IMG/VR virus record: IMGVR_UViG_2737471843_000007
From: a virus
Taxonomy: Duplodnaviria; Heunggongvirae; Uroviricota; Caudoviricetes
Strand: one strand, 5' to 3'
Length of the DNA stretch: 24,606 nt
Shown here piece by piece: positions 12,762-24,606 of this stretch (the stretch's first letter is position 1; each line of letters begins with the position of its first letter). The position numbers and the translations under genes were made by a program. Under the pieces are notes generated by a model. That model was not told the origin of the DNA. It worked only from the letters and a program-made list of their open reading frames with translations, and searched no databases.

Positions 12762-13100
12762 TTAACAAACGGCGTATAAACCATCAAATCCAACGGAATG
12801 AACCTTTTTTGATGCTACTTCATTACTACGGCGTTGGATCACTTTTGCAATACTTTTTAAAATTGAAGGGGGTGCATTGCGAACCTTAACTTGACTCAAA
12901 ACTTTGGTTACACCGAATTTCACTACCAAAACACCAAAGATTTCATCAGAGTATGATTCTGAAATTGAATAAACACCGCTCAGATCTAAATCTACGGTAT
13001 ACCCTTCTTTAATGAACCCTTCAATCTTGTGTCGTTGGGGGATAGCCTGATTGCGCGAAGCCAGGTCACCCTCGGGTAACTTGTATGCGATTTTGTTCAT
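12762..13100 (-). CDS. Small STAS-like protein (DUF4325-like / anti-sigma-antagonist-like fold suspected); second gene of a two-gene cargo cassette
   Basis: The 112-aa ORF has a strong SD (AGGAGGAG). Its ATG overlaps the upstream stop (TAATG). The motif VDLDLSGVYSISESYSDEIFGVLVVKFG resembles STAS-like domains from memory; the region is AT-rich. Confidence 0.55.
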   Translation of the reverse strand: MNKIAYKLPEGDLASRNQAIPQRHKIEGFIKEGYTVDLDLSGVYSISESYSDEIFGVLVVKFGVTKVLSQVKVRNAPPSILKSIAKVIQRRSNEVASKKVHSVGFDGLYAVC

Positions 13101-14074
13101 TACTCTCCTCCTAACGCCCGCATTATTTCCATAAGCTGAGGGTCATTTTCTTCGCTATCTTTATCGACTGCCAGTTCATGAATCTTAAAACGGCAAGAAA
13201 TTGCTACACCCGGCCATTCAGTACGTAATTCAGTATAGCTCACTTCATCACCTATTGCTTCTAAGCATACATTTCCTGAAGCCAGTTGCAATTCCCCATT
13301 ATATGTTTTTATCAATTTCATCAAGTGATACAACCCAAGCCCTTGATGATTATTATCTTTTTCTTTGACCGAAACCCCGTGGCCAAACACACTACCCCCA
13401 ATAAAGTCCTGGGGAAGCTGCTGTGCCCAATCATCCTGCAAATCAGCATGCTTAGATGAATGTCCCTCTTGAATACACCATGCGATCGCATCCTGGTGAG
13501 TCTCAATTCCGGGTATACCAGCTCGCCGCAATTCTCGGAGAAATCCTAACCCACAGTCCGCCAAAGAAAATTCTAAATAGTGCTCTTTTTTTTGAGTGTG
13601 GGGTACAGCCGAACGTTGTGCAAAAGAAAAACCCGTTGATTTTCCATGCGACCAAACGTTATCGTGAAGCTCACCTATAACATGGGTTAGATCTGTAAGT
13701 CCCTTGGGACAATCTCTCGGATCACGATCAGGGAATGTTAACTGCCTTACACAACTGTTAATACTACCAGTGGCAACGTCAACAGCTTCAACATTGGTTA
13801 ATGCTGTAACCAAACTGTAATTTCTTCCAACATTTACACGTTCCTGTTGATACTGATCCTCTCCCCATAAAGCACCATGTAAATTGATAGCTCGCATATA
13901 GCCAGGGCATGACAAAACACAGTTATCTTCGGTAATTTTGTGATGATTCACGTAAGCTGCTAAGACAGTGATAAAACCAGGATGCCAATGATTGTTTGGC
14001 AATTGCAATTCATTAGTTTCCTTTTGATGAAACGCAGCGGTATGCACAATAGCGTCTTTTAATCCTAACCCCAT
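13100..14074 (-). CDS. GHKL (histidine-kinase-like, Bergerat fold) ATPase-domain protein; first gene of the cargo cassette
   Basis: The 324-aa ORF carries, in correct order, an N-box-like GELHDNVWSHG, a G1-box LADCGLGF (DxGxG) and a G2-box HQGLGLYHL (GxGxG). It is AT-rich and translationally coupled to the downstream small gene. Confidence 0.6.
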   Translation of the reverse strand: MGLGLKDAIVHTAAFHQKETNELQLPNNHWHPGFITVLAAYVNHHKITEDNCVLSCPGYMRAINLHGALWGEDQYQQERVNVGRNYSLVTALTNVEAVDVATGSINSCVRQLTFPDRDPRDCPKGLTDLTHVIGELHDNVWSHGKSTGFSFAQRSAVPHTQKKEHYLEFSLADCGLGFLRELRRAGIPGIETHQDAIAWCIQEGHSSKHADLQDDWAQQLPQDFIGGSVFGHGVSVKEKDNNHQGLGLYHLMKLIKTYNGELQLASGNVCLEAIGDEVSYTELRTEWPGVAISCRFKIHELAVDKDSEENDPQLMEIMRALGGE

Positions 14075-14384: not shown

Positions 14385-15062
14385 CTAGAACGTGACAGCC
14401 TTGTCAAAGCCAGAAATAATTGTATAAGAAATAGACGAGTTATCAGCCTTGTTCACTTTGAACTTGGCACCTTTGTAAGCGATAACGTCACTTCCCTTAG
14501 AATCTACAGAAAAATCTGTTGTAAATGCTGCACGAGCCATATCGTTTGCAAATTCACGATAGGTGAACTTCATTACACCGCCTGCATTTCCATTGTATTC
14601 GATAGTCTTAACCAATGAGTTACTAACTCGACACAGCCCATCAGGAACACGTTTGATAGAAATTTCTGATGCAGTATAAGAAGTACCATTTGGCGGTGAT
14701 ATCTCATTTTTTGCAGCATCGTAACTAACATAATCAACATAGTTACCGATTTGCCCATAGAGATTTTTTAACGCAACAGCTTGAGGGTTATGATAATTGC
14801 GGTAAATTCCATTCCCCTCACTGCAATATGTACCAGCAGCGATAGAAGACAATGCACCATTAGCCGCACCAAGTTCTAGTACGTCCGTTTTAAATCCAGT
14901 AGCAGATGTGATAATGGGATCGCCCATGTAGGCGGTAGCACTTTGCCCAATAGCAGGCTTCACCACTTCAATAGCAGTGATATTTCGGTTAGAAGCATGT
15001 GGCACGCAACCAGTTAGGATTACAGCAAGAGATATTGGTAACGCTACATTATTAATTTTCAT
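14385..15062 (-). CDS. Cargo lipoprotein of unknown function (predicted outer-membrane lipoprotein)
   Basis: From the internal Met the protein starts MKINNVALPISLAVILTGC, with lipobox LTGC. The ORF-track start at 15116 would span a hairpin plus T-tract and is rejected. The start coordinate may be off by 1-2 nt. The region is AT-rich. Confidence 0.6.
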   Translation of the reverse strand: MKINNVALPISLAVILTGCVPHASNRNITAIEVVKPAIGQSATAYMGDPIITSATGFKTDVLELGAANGALSSIAAGTYCSEGNGIYRNYHNPQAVALKNLYGQIGNYVDYVSYDAAKNEISPPNGTSYTASEISIKRVPDGLCRVSNSLVKTIEYNGNAGGVMKFTYREFANDMARAAFTTDFSVDSKGSDVIAYKGAKFKVNKADNSSISYTIISGFDKAVTF

Positions 15063-15175
15063 TTTTAGCCTATTATTCTTTTCTTGACAAAAAACAAGGC
15101 GATATCTGATTGACATCGCCTCTCACTCATATGTAACCCTTTTTGATTAGTAAAAACAAGCGTCTATTGACAAAA

Positions 15176-15409
15176 TCAATGCAGCCAGCTGTCGTCTTCC
15201 CACACCTTCTGCATAATTTTCATCACTTGTTTTCTTTCTTCGTCCAGTTGCAGTCCGGTCAGTTCCACACCGTTAGAGCTACCTTTACGGATACGGATTA
15301 CCGTTTTGGGATACAGGGGGCGCAGATTGCGGTAAAGCTCGGATTCAAGGGCGTCCAGGGTAGACTGGCTAATCTTCTGCTCTTTATCGATCATTATTTC
15401 AATGCGCAT
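15176..15409 (-). CDS. DinI-like protein (SOS-associated; possibly the DinI-like part of a Tum-type module)
   Basis: From the internal ATG at 15409, preceded by SD GAGGTGA, the protein MRIEIMIDKEQKISQSTLDALESELYRNLRP...WEDDSWLH resembles E. coli DinI (MRIEVTIAK...). The longer ORF-track N-terminus is rejected. Confidence 0.75.
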   Translation of the reverse strand: MRIEIMIDKEQKISQSTLDALESELYRNLRPLYPKTVIRIRKGSSNGVELTGLQLDEERKQVMKIMQKVWEDDSWLH

Positions 15410-15419
15410 AAAAGTCACC

Positions 15420-15608
15420 TCAACTGATGACATCCATTGAGCGGTTGTATTCGTGGGTTCTGATTTTTGCCATGAGTTCATCAGTCAATTCAGAAACCCA
15501 CTGCAGAGCCAGCCCCTTTTCTTCATCACTACACTCACTAGCCGCTACAAGCTTAAGAAAAAAATCAATGCGCTGGAGCTTCAAAGACTCCAAAAAATAG
15601 TCCTGCAT
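15420..15608 (-). CDS. Small SOS-controlled ORF upstream of the DinI-like gene (Tum-like N-terminal module?)
   Basis: The 62-aa ORF has a strong SD (AGGAGG) 6-8 nt before the ATG and a perfect LexA box ~45 nt upstream. It stops 11 nt before the DinI-like ATG. Confidence 0.5.
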   Translation of the reverse strand: MQDYFLESLKLQRIDFFLKLVAASECSDEEKGLALQWVSELTDELMAKIRTHEYNRSMDVIS

Positions 15609-15651
15609 CTTTCCTCCTATGACACCACAAGCAATACTGTATACATAACCA

Positions 15652-15667
15652 CTGTTTATATTTACAG
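15652..15667. promoter_or_regulatory. LexA box (SOS operator)
   Basis: CTGTttatatttACAG is a perfect CTGT-N8-ACAG. An overlapping half-site box (CTGTatacataaCCAC) lies immediately upstream at 15637-15652. Confidence 0.7.
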
Positions 15668-15761
15668 CATATAATAATCTTACTGATGTAAAACGTTTTT
15701 TTACGCTTATCAGCCTGATATGCCTGGTATTATTAAGAGCACGAATTGTTAACCAGCGTAA

Positions 15762-18176
15762 TTAATACAGGTTCCGCCACTTATCATCTTCCTGCAAACG
15801 CTGGTTCCGATAGAAGATACGCAAGCCTGCTCCTGACGGAATACTGCCGCCGCGAAGGAGTAAATCGACCTCTTTCTCGCTACCATCAAATCCTCTGGAC
15901 TTCAGCTCATAGACGAGCTGCAGTCGCTGATGGTCTGTAATTCGCTGTTTGTAGTCTTTACGCCGTTTCGGTTTCACCAGGCGTAACCTTGCAGCCAGTT
16001 CCCGGCGCTCTTTTTTGTTCATACTGTGCAGGTAATCGTGCAACTCCTTGTCATCCATGCTGGTAATGTCCGTTCTGGGGGCCCCATCAGCTGATTTATC
16101 TTTCTCCTGTTGGTTCAAATTTTCAGCAAGGGGACAGTTATTGCCACGAGTCCAAGGGGCGCAAGCGCCCTGGTCGGCTGCCGCCTCCTGAACGTCAACG
16201 GCCTTACGAACCATTTTCCACTTCACGGCATGAGTGCAGATTTTGCCCTCTGTAATGGGTGACCAGATGCCATAAATACGAATGCCGTGATCGCCATAGG
16301 CGGTCGGCTCTTCGTTGATTTCATAAGCGGTTCTGATGAGGTGATATTTACGGGGAACCAGTACGCCGCCCTGCTTCATGATGTAGGTGGCAAAACAACC
16401 AGCATCAGCTGCAGCCAGAATGGCATCAAGGCGCGGGTTATCCAGTACCGGCGCACCTGCTTTTTTGTCACCCTGTTGCCTTGCCGCCTGACCAGCCAGC
16501 AATCGCAGTTCACGGTAAGCCTGACGCCCCGGAATGCCAAAGAAGCGGAATTGCTGAACACGATGCAGAGACGCCCAGGCATTAACGTATTCAGCGTTAT
16601 CACGCAGAGATTTACCCGTTTCCTTGCTGATCTCGCCAGCCAGACCACGCCCGTCAATGTTCTTACTGATGTATTTCGCGATGTAGCTAGTCGGCGTTCC
16701 TTTGCGCGGGTTTATCAGCTCAGACTTAAAGCGTGGCCCCGTGTTATTACCCAGCTCCTCGCGGTCTTCACGGATAGCAAACTTACGCAACAATGCAGTA
16801 ATGGCGCGGCGGTCTTTTTTGCGCATGAAACACAACAGGTGCCAGTGAACTGTGCCGTCATGATGCGGCTCAGCCACCCGCACGCCATACCAGCGCAATC
16901 CGGCTTTGTGCATCGCCTTACGAAATGCAGCAAACATGCCGACCAGATAATCACTGCTTTGTCTTACCGTCGCATTTGTCCAGGTCGGGTTGGGCCTGCC
17001 GTTATTTAGCGTGGAATGGAAACGTGACGGACAGGTGATGGTGTAGAAAACGGCGCAGTCACCGCGCATTTCCGCGATAAGCTCCAGACCTTTAACACAG
17101 GCCATCATCTCATTGCGGCGATGCGCAGGGTTGCTGCTGCTGGCGTTTACCACATCCTCCATGTCCAGCGTATCGCCGTCTTCGTTCACCAGTTCATGAG
17201 AACGGAAAAACTCCAGCGACTTACGGCGCTGCTCACGTTTATGCATCACGGCTTCATAGCTGACATAGGGAGATGCTTTTTTGCTGACCAGGCAAACAGC
17301 ACGCAACTGCTCTTCCCGCCATTCGCAACGCATCTTCCACAATTTCCGATACCACCAGTCGGCGCACAGCATACGCGCCAGCGACCCCGGAATGAGTTCA
17401 TAGGGCACGGGTTTACGGCGGTTTCTTTTCCGGCGGAGTTGCTCAAACGCAGGCGGTATGACATCCAGTCGCAGGGTTTCCGCCGCCACCTTTTCCCATG
17501 TCTTGCGGATTTCTTCTGGCTTAACGTCATCGGTGGCATACAAATCGCCACAAGCGGCATCAAGGCACATGCTCATATGCGCAGCTACCAGGGTGGACAG
17601 GCGTTTCACCTGATCCTGACTCATTTCAGGCAGGATCAGCAGACCGTCCAGCCCTTCATGGCTTGCCATAAAGCGAAAAGAAGTGGATAGCTGACTGTCG
17701 CGTACATGCTCCAGTCGTTCCAGACATGGCTTAATCGTCTCACGCAAATAGCGGGAATAAGCCTTTGGCCTGCCCAGGCTGCTGAAGTATTCAATACGTT
17801 GCATCAGCGGCTTGCTGATATGGGAAGGCTGGGCGTTGACGTCCGCCAGAATGACCATATCCGGATTAAAACGCTGCTGCTCATGCGCCAGCTTTGCCCG
17901 ACTAATGAGCTTATCCTGTTCCATTTCGCGCTGGACAGGATCACGGGATTCATTAAAGAAATAACGCTCCCAGACCTGATCACTCAGCGCCTCACGGCGC
18001 AGCTGTTCCTGCTCGTTATCGGCAGCGTACAGAGTGATCAGGTTTGAAAGCGCAGAAACCGGCGCAACTTCCGCCGGGTCCAGATAAGGGTTAATGGCCT
18101 TTTTCGGGCTGTTCCATGAGAATGCTGCGGCGACCTCGTTAAAGCCGCTGCAGTTGTTCATATCAGCATGGCTCAT
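15762..18176 (-). CDS. A: Rolling-circle replication initiator (P2 gpA / 186 A-like, HUH endonuclease)
   Basis: The 804-aa ORF contains an HUH-type motif ([10 protein letters not shown]) and tyrosine motif ([10 protein letters not shown]). It is translationally coupled to the upstream methylase (ATGA). Confidence 0.95.
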
Positions 18177-19030
18177 GCACGCACTCCGTACACGGCAGAA
18201 CTATCCACGCCACGCGAAGGATCAAATCCCACCCAGCAGCGCGGCCCGGAAACAGCGATGATTTCTGTTGCAGATTTACTCTCACCAACTGCCACACCGA
18301 TGCTGCGTTTTGCCTTGATGTAGTGGTGAGTAAAATTGCGATATAGCGAACGGATCAGGGATGTGTCACTGTTAGAAACAATGACCGGATGTCCTTCTGA
18401 TGACCGATGTTCAAGAACGGATGCCAGGTGATACTGGTCATCTTCAGTGAAACCATCAGTGTGATAGCCGGAAAACGTACCGTCATACGGCGGATCGCAA
18501 TACACCACATCCCCCACCTGCAGCATCGCCAGCGTTTCATCAAAGCTTGCGCAGATAAACGTTGCCCGCTGGGCTTTCTCTGCAAATGCGCGAATTTCTT
18601 TTTCAGGGAAATACGGATTTTTATAATTACCGTACGGAATGTTGAAATGCCCGCTCTTGTTATAGCGACATAAACCACGGTAACCGTGACGATTGAGATA
18701 CAGGAAATATACCGCTTTCATGAAATCAGTAATTTCAGTTGAGTAATTAAACTCCTGCCTTATGTTGTAATAAGCCACCTCCCTGTTTGCTTCCTTAAAT
18801 AAAACTCTGGCGCGAGATATAAACGATTCACAATCAGCGGCAACCTTTTTATAGAGGTTGATTAAATCAGGATTAATATCCGCAACCAGATAGCTTGGAT
18901 AATCCGTCGCCATCATCACAGCACAGGAACCCGCGAAAGGTTCAACCAGTCGCGGGCCAGCAGGAAGGTGTTTTTTCAGTTCGGACATAATTGCGGTTTT
19001 ATTTCCCGCCCATTTCAGGATGGTGCTCAT
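18173..19030 (-). CDS. dam: DNA adenine methyltransferase (Dam family, N6-A MTase)
   Basis: From the internal Met the protein starts [23 protein letters not shown] and includes the FAGSCAVMM region and the DPPY catalytic motif. Start ATG at 19030 overlaps the upstream stop (ATGA). Confidence 0.9.
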
Positions 19031-19254
19031 ACAGCACCTCCGTTGTAATGTTTGCCTTTCAGCTCTGCGATTTCCTGACAGATAATGCAAAGCTGCACAC
19101 CTGGAATGGCGCGGCGGCGTGCTGGCGGAATTGGCGCTTCACACTCAATGCAAAGCACGCGGGACACGCCCGGCGTTTTGGCACGGGCAGCACGGATATG
19201 GCGCTGGCGTTCTTCTTCAACGCGCTGCTGTACGAGATCCATTGCATCAGCCAT
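19027..19254 (-). CDS. TraR/DksA-type C4 zinc-finger protein
   Basis: The 75-aa ORF has a C-x2-C...C-x2-C arrangement (CIECEAP...CIICQE). It is coupled to flanking genes by ATGA/TAATG overlaps. Confidence 0.7.
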   Translation of the reverse strand: MADAMDLVQQRVEEERQRHIRAARAKTPGVSRVLCIECEAPIPPARRRAIPGVQLCIICQEIAELKGKHYNGGAV

Positions 19255-21176: not shown

Positions 21177-21773
21177 ATGTCAACATCAAAGTACCCAAGT
21201 GAGATCAAAATAAATCCCAATAAAGGTGGTAAGGCTGCGATTGAGCGATTAGTCGAAGCTTATGGCTTTACGACACGACAGGCTTTAGCTGATCACTTGG
21301 AAGTATCAAAAAGCACTCTGGCGAACAGGTATTTGCGGGATACGTTTCCTGCAGACTGGATAATCCAATGTGCTCTTGAAACAGGAACCTCACTGAAATG
21401 GTTAACCACCGGGCAAGGACTTAAGCAAAGCTCGCTGACAGTAGCCACAGAAGAGCTTCCCAAGTTTCGCCTTACCGCAGGCAAAATGATTGAAGATGGT
21501 TCATATGTCTTCGATTCATCATTTCTTCCTGCAAATCTTTCATCACCAATTGTTATTCAGGATGGGCTTGTCACATACATTTGTGATCAAAAATTTTCTG
21601 AAGTACTTGATGGGCACTGGTTAATCAACATCGACGGAACCTATTCCATTCGAAAAATCACAAAGCTTCCAAAAGGTATGATTAAAATTACAACTACAGA
21701 GAATAGCTTTGAATGTGCATTTTCTGATATTGAAGTGGTTGCTTGTATAAGAAGTACAATAGTTTCAAATTGA
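21177..21773 (+). CDS. cI: CI-type immunity repressor (186 CI-like)
   Basis: The 198-aa ORF has an N-terminal HTH region (GFTTRQALADHLEVSKSTLANRYLR) and the conserved CALETG motif, upstream of int as in 186. Confidence 0.75.
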   Translation: MSTSKYPSEIKINPNKGGKAAIERLVEAYGFTTRQALADHLEVSKSTLANRYLRDTFPADWIIQCALETGTSLKWLTTGQGLKQSSLTVATEELPKFRLTAGKMIEDGSYVFDSSFLPANLSSPIVIQDGLVTYICDQKFSEVLDGHWLINIDGTYSIRKITKLPKGMIKITTTENSFECAFSDIEVVACIRSTIVSN

Positions 21774-21793: not shown

Positions 21794-23470
21794 ATGAATT
21801 CATTTTCCATCGTTATATTCTTATTAGCATTTCTCGCCCCTGTTCTAGCTATAATATTATTTAAGCAAAGTAAAGAACACAAAACCGCCATAGATAACCT
21901 GACGGCTAACAACATAGCTCTTTCCAGCCAACTGAAAGAAAATCAAGAAGAATTAGCACAGACTGTACGAGATCTATCAGAGCTTGAAGGACGAGCTGCA
22001 CCATTATGGCAATACGTAGAATTGCACAGCGCAGTGATGGAAGCAGAGAATAAGATAAAAAATGCAGACTCAATAGCCAGGCAAAAAATAGAAGAAGCCC
22101 AAATAAAGGCTGCTAAGACAGTAAACGAAGCAAATTATCAAGCTCAGATAACAATAAGCAACGCTAATAGCGAAGCTATAGCAATCACCAAAGACGCTCG
22201 CGATGCACGCCTGAAAGCCAAAGAACGTCTTGATAATGCCAACAGTAAAGCAAATGAGCTGATCTCAAATGCTAATGACAACGCAGTAAAAATTATTTCC
22301 GATGCAGAAGAAAGAGCAAAAGAGATTGCTGGTTCAGCATATGAAGCTAAAGAGTTTGCAGAAAAATATGAAGCAGTTGCCAAATCAATGAAAAATAAAA
22401 TTGAAGGTTATGGCGATGAATGGATCATCCCTAACCGTAGTGTACTTGATGAATTGGCAGAAAATTATGAGTTTACAGATGCAGGCAAGGAATTACAAAA
22501 AGCCAGGGAGTTAACAAAATCATTAATAAAAACTAATAAAGCAGCTTCGTGTGATTATGTTGAGCAAAACAGGCGTAATACTGCTATCAACTTTGTTTTG
22601 GATGCCTTCAATGGAAGAGTTGACAGTATTTTATCAAAAGTCAAACACAACAATTTTGGAAAACTTTCCCAAGAAATAAAAGATGCATTTCAACTTGTAA
22701 ATTATAATGGCTCTGCTTTTAAATCCGCAAAAATAAGTGACATCTATCTTCAGGCACGACTCAACGAGCTAAAATGGGGAGTTGCAGTTAATGAAATTAT
22801 GCTCGAAGAAAAAGAGGAGCAAAGAAGGATTAAAGAACAGCTTCGTGAAGAGGAAAGAGCTCGTAGAGAGTATGAAAAAGCGATAAAAGAAGCCGAAAAA
22901 GAAGAGAAAGCTATTCAACAAGCTATAAATAAAGCGACGAAAGAGCTTATGCTTGCAAATGAAGAACAACGCTTAGCTTTAGAGCAAAAAATAGCTGAAC
23001 TACAGTTAAAATATGAAGAAGCTGAAGCTAAAAACCAACGAGCTATTTCTATGGCTCAACAAACTAGATCAGGCCATGTTTATATAATTAGCAATATTGG
23101 CTCATTTGGCGAAGATGTATATAAAATTGGAATGACACGCCGCCTTGAACCACTTGATCGTGTTCGTGAACTTGGGGATGCTAGTGTTCCTTTTTCGTTC
23201 GATGTTCATGCGATGATTTATAGTGATGATGCACCGTCATTAGAAAATCATCTGCATAAAGTCTTCAACGAAAAGCAGGTCAATAAAATTAACTCACGAA
23301 AAGAGTTTTTTAACGTAAATATTAAAGAAATTAAATCGGTTATTGAAGATATGAACATCAATGCCCACTGGACAATGTTTGCAGAGGCGAAAGAATATAG
23401 AGAGTCACTAGCTATTGAGCAGGAACGCAAAGCAGCCACTTCCGCCAACGATGAACTACATGTTGCTTAG
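21794..23470 (+). CDS. Cargo gene: membrane-anchored coiled-coil protein with DUF4041-like region and C-terminal T5orf172 (GIY-YIG-like) domain
   Basis: The 558-aa ORF has SD AAGGA before the ATG and is strongly AT-rich. It has an N-terminal TM (FSIVIFLLAFLAPVLAIILF) and a long K/E/A-rich coiled coil. The C-terminus GHVYIISNIGSFGEDVYKIGMTRRLEPLDRVRELGD...LENHLHKVFNEKQVN...KEFFNV fits the T5orf172/Mug113 pattern. Confidence 0.7.
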   Translation: MNSFSIVIFLLAFLAPVLAIILFKQSKEHKTAIDNLTANNIALSSQLKENQEELAQTVRDLSELEGRAAPLWQYVELHSAVMEAENKIKNADSIARQKIEEAQIKAAKTVNEANYQAQITISNANSEAIAITKDARDARLKAKERLDNANSKANELISNANDNAVKIISDAEERAKEIAGSAYEAKEFAEKYEAVAKSMKNKIEGYGDEWIIPNRSVLDELAENYEFTDAGKELQKARELTKSLIKTNKAASCDYVEQNRRNTAINFVLDAFNGRVDSILSKVKHNNFGKLSQEIKDAFQLVNYNGSAFKSAKISDIYLQARLNELKWGVAVNEIMLEEKEEQRRIKEQLREEERARREYEKAIKEAEKEEKAIQQAINKATKELMLANEEQRLALEQKIAELQLKYEEAEAKNQRAISMAQQTRSGHVYIISNIGSFGEDVYKIGMTRRLEPLDRVRELGDASVPFSFDVHAMIYSDDAPSLENHLHKVFNEKQVNKINSRKEFFNVNIKEIKSVIEDMNINAHWTMFAEAKEYRESLAIEQERKAATSANDELHVA

Positions 23471-23528
23471 CAATGTATGTTTCATAGCAATCACACATTG
23501 ATTACTGGTTGTATATACAGTTAAATTT

Positions 23529-23553
23529 AGCCCTCTGATATGAGGGCTTTTTT
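23529..23553 (+). terminator. Rho-independent terminator immediately upstream of the int start codon
   Basis: Hairpin AGCCCTC-tgatat-GAGGGCT is followed by TTTTT, which runs directly into the int ATG at 23554. Confidence 0.6.
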
Positions 23554-24606
23554 ATGGCAGTACGAAAACTCACCACAGGAAAATGGCTGTGCGAATGTTA
23601 TCCCGCCGGACGTAGTGGACGTCGTGTGCGTAAACAATTCGCCACCAAAGGCGAAGCTCTGGCTTTTGAGCGTCACACGATGGAAGAAACCGAAGCAAAG
23701 CCCTGGCTAGGTGAATCAGTGGATCGTCGAACACTGAAAGACGTGGTTGAGCTATGGTTCAAACTACATGGTAAATCACTGACTGCTGGGCAGCATGTCT
23801 ATGACAAATTGCTGCTGATGGTTGACGCTCTGGGCAATCCCCTTGCAACGGATCTAACCTCTAAAATGTTTGCCCACTATCGAGATAAACGCCTGACAGG
23901 CGAGATCTACTTCAGCGAGAAATGGAAGAAAGGAGCAAGCCCGGTCACCATTAACCTGGAGCAAAGCTATCTAAGTAGTGTTTTTAGCGAACTATCCCGT
24001 CTGGGCGAATGGTCGTATCCGAACCCACTGGAGAACATGCGAAAATTCACCATCGCAGAAAAAGAGATGGCATGGCTTACCCATGAGCAGATTGTTGAAT
24101 TGCTGGCTGATTGCAAACGTCAGGACCCAATTCTGGCACTGGTAGTTAAGATATGCTTAAGCACAGGCGCACGCTGGCGTGAAGCCGTAAATCTTACCCG
24201 CTCACAGGTGACCAAATACCGAATTACCTTTGTCAGAACGAAGGGGAAGAAAAACAGAAGCATCCCTATCAGTAAAGAGCTTTACGAAGAGATCATGGCG
24301 CTCGATGGGTTCAATTTCTTCACAGACTGCTATTTTCAATTTTTATCCGTGATGGAAAAAACGTCTATCGTGCTCCCTCGCGGTCAACTCACACACGTTC
24401 TGCGCCATACGTTTGCAGCGCACTTCATGATGTCGGGTGGAAACATTCTGGCCTTACAAAAAATTCTCGGACACCACGATATAAAAATGACTATGCGTTA
24501 CGCACATCTGGCACCGGATCATCTGGAAACGGCGCTCCGTTTCAATCCTCTGGCAACGCTGCCAAGTGGCGACAAAGTGGCGGCAGCGGTTGGCATTACC
24601 CCGTAA
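23554..24606 (+). CDS. int: Tyrosine integrase (P2/186 Int family)
   Basis: The 350-aa ORF has an N-terminus MAVRKLTTGKW...GRRVRKQFATKGEALAFE like P2 Int, and C-terminal catalytic motifs (HVLRHTFA; MRYAHL). Confidence 0.9.
   Translation: MAVRKLTTGKWLCECYPAGRSGRRVRKQFATKGEALAFERHTMEETEAKPWLGESVDRRTLKDVVELWFKLHGKSLTAGQHVYDKLLLMVDALGNPLATDLTSKMFAHYRDKRLTGEIYFSEKWKKGASPVTINLEQSYLSSVFSELSRLGEWSYPNPLENMRKFTIAEKEMAWLTHEQIVELLADCKRQDPILALVVKICLSTGARWREAVNLTRSQVTKYRITFVRTKGKKNRSIPISKELYEEIMALDGFNFFTDCYFQFLSVMEKTSIVLPRGQLTHVLRHTFAAHFMMSGGNILALQKILGHHDIKMTMRYAHLAPDHLETALRFNPLATLPSGDKVAAAVGITP

Follow-up and report, generated by a model that had tools for sequence, protein, structure and literature searches.

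A predicted SOS operon of the Fels-2/DuoHS type, with separate tumA and tumB genes, in a 186-like P2-family prophage

Phage 186 carries an SOS operon downstream of its replication gene A, in which the promoter p95 (annotated as TTCACA-18-TACTGT) and a LexA site overlapping its -10 element are followed by tum, the partial terminator t95a and orf97. Tum is a 146-aa protein in which an antirepressor module is fused to a DinI-like module, and the DinI-like part is also produced from an internal GTG start as a short product that, according to the 186 annotation, 'modulates SOS induction'. Antirepression by Tum, which binds CI and prevents it from binding its operators, is attributed to Shearwin 1998 as cited in PMC3121763. 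In the prophages Fels-2 and PSP3, tum is split in two, and the upstream gene is the antirepressor in PSP3 (Lemire et al. 2011, PMC3121763). The PSP3 annotation accordingly describes tumA as 'similar to 5' end 186 tum; UV induction of prophage' and tumB as 'similar to dinI and 3' end of 186 tum'. Transcriptomic data exist for Fels-2, where STM2727 was induced 5.5- to 14.8-fold by the mutagen MX, placing it among the most significantly induced genes of the LexA regulon, and where STM2726-STM2727-STM2728 were scored as one mutagen-responsive operon (PMC2225428). Genetic data exist for DuoHS, a prophage of E. coli HS, in which either an in-frame deletion of tum (ECHS_RS04495) or a lexA(Ind-) allele abolishes induction by mitomycin (Phollow study, PMC12055606); the deletion could in principle be polar on tumB. 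The operons of the Gifsy and Fels-1 prophages (GfoA, GftA, FsoA) are likewise LexA-repressed, lie outside the immunity region and pair a small antirepressor with a DinI homologue, and their antirepressors can act on non-cognate repressors (PMC3121763).

We analysed a 24,606-nucleotide stretch of viral DNA assigned to the Caudoviricetes (IMG/VR record IMGVR_UViG_2737471843_000007), hereafter the window. A sequence-only reading had pointed to LexA-controlled genes downstream of A and compared them with the tum locus of 186. The sequence features it had listed were recovered where it had placed them, on the minus strand, and its comparison is supported, since the locus is both the positional and the homologous counterpart of the 186 SOS operon. 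On the strand of gene A and immediately downstream of it, an AT-rich intergenic stretch leads into a 62-aa ORF and a 77-aa DinI-family ORF, and the whole operon spans 14385-15692 (Table 1). CI, CII and integrase ORFs are also present in the window. We are confident that the window carries the SOS operon of a Fels-2/DuoHS-type, 186-like P2-family prophage, and that its two ORFs are separate genes and no broken fusion. The LexA-repressed tumA/tumB module itself is already known from 186, PSP3, Fels-2 and DuoHS.

Table 1 Positions in the window of the features discussed in the text.
Feature	Position	Strand	Basis
Lipoprotein-like gene, signal peptide MKINNVALPISLAVILTGC	14385-15062	-	99% identical to Fels-2 STM2726
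Intrinsic-terminator-like hairpin after tumB, 11-bp stem and T-run	15086-15122	-	Folding z -3.26
tumB-like gene, 77 aa, DinI family	15176-15409	-	Pfam DinI
tumA-like gene, 62 aa, presumed antirepressor of prophage CI	15420-15608	-	PHROG profiles, homology
Shine-Dalgarno AGGAGG of the 62-aa gene	15613-15618	-	Read from sequence
Proximal LexA box CAGTGGTTATGTATACAGTA	15635-15654	-	Predicted; 20-mer scoring
Distal LexA (SOS) box TGCTGTAAATATAAACAGTG	15650-15669	-	Predicted; core CTGT-N8-ACAG at 15652-15667; 20-mer scoring
Candidate -10 region	15664-15671	-	Overlaps left arm of distal SOS box
Candidate -35 TTTACA, counterpart of 186 p95	15687-15692	-	Read from sequence
Replication gene A, 804 aa	15762-18176	-	ORF list
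186-type CI repressor, presumed TumA target	21177-21773	+	33% identical to 186 CI, E 1e-34

The likeness to 186 extends over the whole arrangement: a LexA site overlapping the -10 element, an antirepressor module, a DinI-like module, a terminator and a further gene follow A in both, and both have an immunity region of the 186 type with CI, Apl and CII. The two differ in that the modules are fused in 186, whereas the window encodes them as two genes in different frames; in addition, 186 has a single LexA box where the window has two overlapping ones. The nearest relatives are Fels-2 (STM2728, STM2726.1/STM2727 and STM2726) and DuoHS (ECHS_RS04495, labelled 'tum', and ECHS_RS04500), in which a 701-nt region is 97.1% and 98.6% identical to the window, respectively. 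Their TumA proteins are 98% identical to the 62-aa protein of the window, from which ECHS_RS04495 differs by one residue, and they have the same dual operator. What sets the window apart from both is one operator base (G for A at 15668), the immunity type of CI (43-55% identity) and the cargo downstream of the operon.

More distant systems share parts of this plan. PSP3 has the same split into tumA and tumB downstream of A, and the TumA types of PSP3 and the window both cross-match phrog_1993 and phrog_8554; however, PSP3 TumA, which belongs to phrog_1993, is only ~22% identical to the window protein, and PSP3 has a single LexA box (TACTGTATAAATATACAGTA). The PSP3 genes are also in the same frame, separated by TAG and one codon, whereas the window pair is out of frame. 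The Gifsy and Fels-1 operons resemble the window in their control, location and composition, but they belong to lambdoid phages, place dinI first, the reverse of the order here, and encode antirepressors and repressors of unrelated families.

Around the operon, a DNA adenine methylase gene (18173-19090, minus strand) immediately precedes and overlaps A. Fels-2 and DuoHS have the same gene order, whereas 186 has a PAPS-reductase-like orf in this place. A hotspot between the portal gene and A (12762-14074, minus strand) holds a gene pair encoding a 324-aa protein with a weak HATPase_c-like match (phrog_3364) and a 112-aa DUF4325 STAS-like protein (Pfam 3.1e-9; weak match to the PADLOC DrmA region, 4.7e-6), which may be uncharacterised defence cargo. 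Fels-2 and DuoHS have other genes in this hotspot. An Rfam search of the window returned no match.

The 62-aa gene is well formed, as the sequence-only reading had stated, with AGGAGG placed 4 nt before its ATG; the GGAGG is conserved in relatives. Alignment of both ORFs with 186 Tum had been suggested as a check, and its outcome differs between them: the DinI-like ORF aligns readily, while BLASTP did not align the 62-aa ORF with 186 Tum at all, so profile methods were needed. The 62-aa ORF matches phrog_698 (3.6e-38), phrog_8554 (2.4e-8) and phrog_1993 (2e-3), and residues 1-70 of 186 Tum match the same three profiles in reverse order (phrog_1993 1.5e-23, phrog_8554 3.4e-12, phrog_698 5.9e-6), with Tum residues 6-44 collinear with profile positions 6-44. 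A family HMM built from 120 close homologues of the 62-aa protein ranked the 186 N-terminus first of 4003 sequences, 4000 of which were shuffles, at 15.4 bits against 10.7 for the best shuffle. Since the profiles connect both proteins, we read the 62-aa protein as distantly homologous to, and collinear with, the N-terminal half of Tum (its antirepressor part), although the two are only ~21% identical.

Homologues of this protein are widespread, with 484 found across Enterobacterales. AlphaFold2 predicts a two-helix hairpin (pLDDT 89.5), for which Foldseek searches of PDB and BFVD returned non-significant, generic helical matches (best E 1.3 and 0.6); the ORF has no Pfam family, no PADLOC match and no PDB sequence match. 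Several phage and UniRef records label the protein 'levan regulatory (domain) protein'. Pfam gives this label no support, and it is apparently an annotation error for the tumA antirepressor that has spread between records.

The second ORF had been called DinI-like with a Shine-Dalgarno sequence of its own, and both parts of this description are borne out by a GAGGTGA preceding the ORF and by a match to Pfam DinI (PF06183) over the full profile (positions 1-63 of 63), scoring 81.3 bits where the gathering threshold is 24.2 (E 6.6e-23). It also matches the E. coli DinI structure 1GHH at 2.7e-6. An ungapped alignment pairs the ORF with residues 71-145 of 186 Tum at 41% identity and places the Met1 of the ORF on Tum V71, the residue at which the short 186 product starts from the annotated internal GTG. 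By alignment, the 77-aa ORF corresponds to the C-terminal half of Tum.

The presumed target of TumA in the window is a CI repressor that is 55% identical to the CI of DuoHS, the prophage in which TumA function was shown. TumA alleles at least 98% identical to that of the window are paired with CI proteins that are 100, 55, 50, 44-45, 42-43 or 39% identical to the window CI; the phages concerned belong to four genera of the Peduoviridae (Felsduovirus, Elveevirus, Kapieceevirus and Gegavirus). These CI partners are 58-83% identical pairwise in their N-terminal domains and 21-58% in their C-terminal domains, while the N-terminal domain of 186 CI is 38-45% identical to that of any CI partner of window-type TumA. 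This pattern fits recognition by TumA of the CI N-terminal DNA-binding domain and a TumA that is common to several immunity types.

Upstream of tumA, the -35 element is probably TTTACA, of which TTTAC is invariant in relatives from Pectobacterium, Lonsdalea and a metagenome. A scan with a strict sigma-70 consensus did not call the hexamers of the SOS promoter, and the assignment of the -10 element is therefore ambiguous between TATGCT (15666-15671), with a 15-nt spacer, and TGCTGT (15664-15669), with a 17-nt spacer that mirrors the annotated 186 p95. The choice matters for the G at 15668, a minority A-to-G substitution that occupies the second position of the distal SOS box and lies inside the candidate -10. 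Among complete E. coli genomes, TGCTGT with G occurs in 17 and TACTGT with A in 968, and under the 186-style assignment the G replaces the critical second base of the -10 element (the -11 A). One could therefore suppose that this prophage has a module of the usual type whose action is attenuated or uncoupled, with G15668 crippling the -10 or shifting LexA affinity, or with a resident CI that is insensitive to this TumA allele, given that the window CI is no closer than 55%, 43% and 33% identical to those of DuoHS, Fels-2 and 186. However, distant relatives have A, G or T at this base within an invariant AT-N-CT, and one Col-type plasmid operator has G, for which reasons we think that the variant is tolerated; the conserved TAT-N-CT would also fit a -10 element in which 15668 is the least critical base. 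As for the repressor, a TumA 100% identical to that of the window occurs with the same CI in Klebsiella phage KP12, and the same TumA also occurs with at least five other CI types, which argues that one TumA type serves all of them. We consider attenuation or uncoupling of the module improbable, and favour an operon that is working in the Fels-2/DuoHS manner.

Control by LexA had been proposed from a perfect CTGT-N8-ACAG, which we confirm at 15652-15667 as the sole perfect match in the window. This bare 16-mer pattern is weak evidence, as 0.43 matches are expected per window and at least one occurred in 33 of 100 shuffles. We therefore give more weight to 20-mers scored against the consensus TACTGTATATATATACAGTA, to which the distal box TGCTGTAAATATAAACAGTG has 4 mismatches; none of 300 Markov-1 simulated windows contained a site with 4 mismatches or fewer. 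The 'overlapping half-box' of the sequence-only reading turned out to be a second 20-mer, CAGTGGTTATGTATACAGTA, offset by 15 nt from the distal box and with 5 mismatches to the consensus but a perfect right arm, and two such sites 15 nt apart were likewise found in 0 of 300 simulated windows. The 20-mers overlap by 5 nt, their 16-mer cores share 1 nt, the shared core reads CAGTGG, and these predicted LexA sites overlap the candidate -10. A fortuitous match in AT-rich sequence, leaving the operon outside SOS control, would be compatible with the expected frequency of the 16-mer and with the strict promoter scan, but not readily with the simulations; moreover, the LexA box is kept in distant relatives despite diverged flanks, and dependence on SOS and LexA has been demonstrated for both Fels-2 and DuoHS, each 97-99% identical to the window in this region. 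Together with the near-invariance of the operator with experimentally studied bacteriocin operators described below, this makes a chance match very improbable, and we retain the predicted LexA repression of the operon.

A 45-nt operator query recovered small Col-type plasmids and Yersinia pestis pPCP1, with the matches sitting directly in front of three genes: pesticin (pst on pPCP1), a klebicin-like tRNase bacteriocin gene and one carried by a small Col-type plasmid of E. coli. In an alignment of the window operator with the pst, klebicin and Col-plasmid operators, ~35 nt are nearly invariant (CTGTA.ATA.AA.CAGTGGTT.T...TACAGTATT). The dual SOS boxes of colicin, klebicin and pesticin operators have the same 15-nt offset as those of the window, although the upstream -35/-10 elements and the regulated genes are unrelated. 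Because overlapping boxes by their nature limit which bases are allowed, the likeness of these operators may reflect either common descent or convergence. A literature search for the operator string brought up no relevant paper. In colicin operators, two LexA dimers bind simultaneously and repression is very tight, according to the account in PMC2994835, which cites Lu and Chak 1996; by analogy, the Fels-2-type tum promoter should be unusually tightly locked, and its operator could be a transferable 'lethal-gene lock' common to bacteriocin promoters.

The two ORFs are in different frames, with a start-to-start offset of 199 nt, and the gap between the TGA stop of the first and the ATG of the second is 10 nt, correcting an earlier count of 11. 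The sequence-only reading had described 186 Tum as a single protein of ~146 aa, which agrees with the 186 record, and had left open whether the window holds a genuine two-protein arrangement or a frameshifted tum; the first of these options stands and the second does not. A broken gene would account for two ORFs 10 nt apart in different frames, for a tumB frame without stops over the 24 codons preceding its ATG (a 101-aa ORF), and for a 186 protein that contains both parts. However, a re-check of the junction, which had been proposed as a guard against sequencing error, found TGA, GAGGTGA and ATG to be the same in DuoHS and Fels-2, with only the codon before the stop differing. Of 5426 complete E. 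coli genomes, 1125 carry the module, more than 1000 of them with the arrangement intact, and it also occurs in Klebsiella, Salmonella, Escherichia, Cronobacter and Yersinia phages; the split is also on record in the PSP3 annotation and the Fels-2 and PSP3 literature. TumA is exactly 62 aa long and 81-100% identical across many genera of Enterobacterales, and the tumA genes of the window and Fels-2 differ by 4 synonymous changes and 1 non-synonymous change. With ~21% identity to the 186 N-terminus and no 186 linker, TumA cannot be the product of a recent break. That the ORFs are halves of a recently frameshifted or nonsense-mutated 186-type tum, or of one split by a sequencing error at the junction, leaving a pseudogene, is the least probable of the readings considered and can practically be dismissed. 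The tumA/tumB split is a genuine, conserved two-gene arrangement.

In two Lonsdalea loci and a metagenome contig, tumA homologues lie downstream of A (around 1501-1716 of those sequences) without an adjacent DinI-family gene, so the tumA and DinI modules are separable. The Lonsdalea tumA locus has a single, near-consensus LexA box, TACTGTAATTATATACAGTA, in place of the dual operator. We also considered programmed frameshifting to a fused Tum and rejected it: the last sense codon before the tumA stop varies (AGT, AGC or AAT in the window, DuoHS and Fels-2), and there is thus no conserved slippery site. A hairpin over the tumA stop and the tumB Shine-Dalgarno sequence (15414-15431) is not more stable than shuffles, and because its z is only -1.28 we do not claim structural translational coupling of the two genes.

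Downstream of tumB, the terminator-like hairpin is the positional counterpart of the partial terminator t95a in the 186 annotation. Beyond it, the lipoprotein-like gene is a probable distal member of the SOS operon. It can be read as 225 or 243 aa and matches phrog_1353 (function unknown) from residue 19 of the longer ORF. Homology to 186 orf97 was considered, the longest reading frames being identical in length, and rejected, as a comparison with 186 Orf97 found no similarity; the gene is a positional, not a homologous, counterpart of orf97.

A second strong LexA-like 20-mer, TACTGGTTGTATATACAGTT, lies at 23503-23522 (context 23470-23556) with 4 mismatches to the consensus, and none of 300 simulated windows held one as good. 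On one side of it a PD-Lambda-1-like gene ends, and on the other is a terminator-like hairpin (23529-23548) directly adjoining the start codon of int (23554). This layout recurs in DuoHS, where the LexA-like box falls within the spacer of a TTGACA-17-AAAAAT promoter; in Fels-2 and 186, cI abuts int and there is no int-proximal LexA-like box. Many E. coli genomes contain a match to the int-upstream segment. The box could mark an SOS-regulated int promoter or small transcript. The gene preceding it, which encodes 558 aa between cI and int (21794-23470, plus strand), matches the PADLOC PD-Lambda-1 defence protein (E 8.5e-120), and RefSeq labels relatives of its product 'SNIPE associated domain-containing protein'; judged by these matches, it is anti-phage cargo in the immunity region.

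These observations suggest how the operon would act. In a lysogen, host LexA on the two overlapping boxes (15635-15669) would cover the -10 and start region and keep the operon silent, as suggested by the sequence here and by genetics and transcriptomics in near-identical prophages. Upon DNA damage, active RecA would trigger LexA self-cleavage, following the established SOS pathway, and the operon would be transcribed. The helical-hairpin TumA would then bind the prophage CI, probably through the conserved N-terminal DNA-binding domain, and keep it off its operators, allowing the lytic promoter to fire; antirepression has been demonstrated by biochemistry with 186 Tum and by genetics with the tum of DuoHS, which is 98% identical. 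TumB would not be an antirepressor; by homology, and in line with the annotation of the short 186 product, its most likely role is to bind RecA filaments and to adjust how strong or how long-lasting the SOS signal is. The terminator after tumB would let part of the transcripts run into the lipoprotein-like gene, in keeping with the Fels-2 orthologues, which behave as one operon.

A further proposal is that Fels-2-type TumA is a generalist antirepressor for at least six CI types, expressed from an operator that serves as a transferable lock, with int under a LexA box of its own in the cargo-bearing subgroup. We regard this as a tentative idea that is rather doubtful at present. The relation of one TumA to many CI proteins, the bacteriocin-type double operator and the extra LexA-like box before int are nevertheless the features of this locus that are worth experiments, the module otherwise being nothing new in kind and carried by about a fifth of complete E. 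coli genomes. Its recognition is of use for annotation, as the 62-aa gene is mostly recorded as 'hypothetical' or, wrongly, as 'levan regulatory protein'. For the prophage in the window, DNA damage should cause induction via antirepression and not via repressor cleavage, and the presence of the module helps to forecast prophage mobilisation under genotoxic antibiotics. If TumA is indeed a generalist, one induced prophage could derepress every co-resident P2-like prophage of the group.
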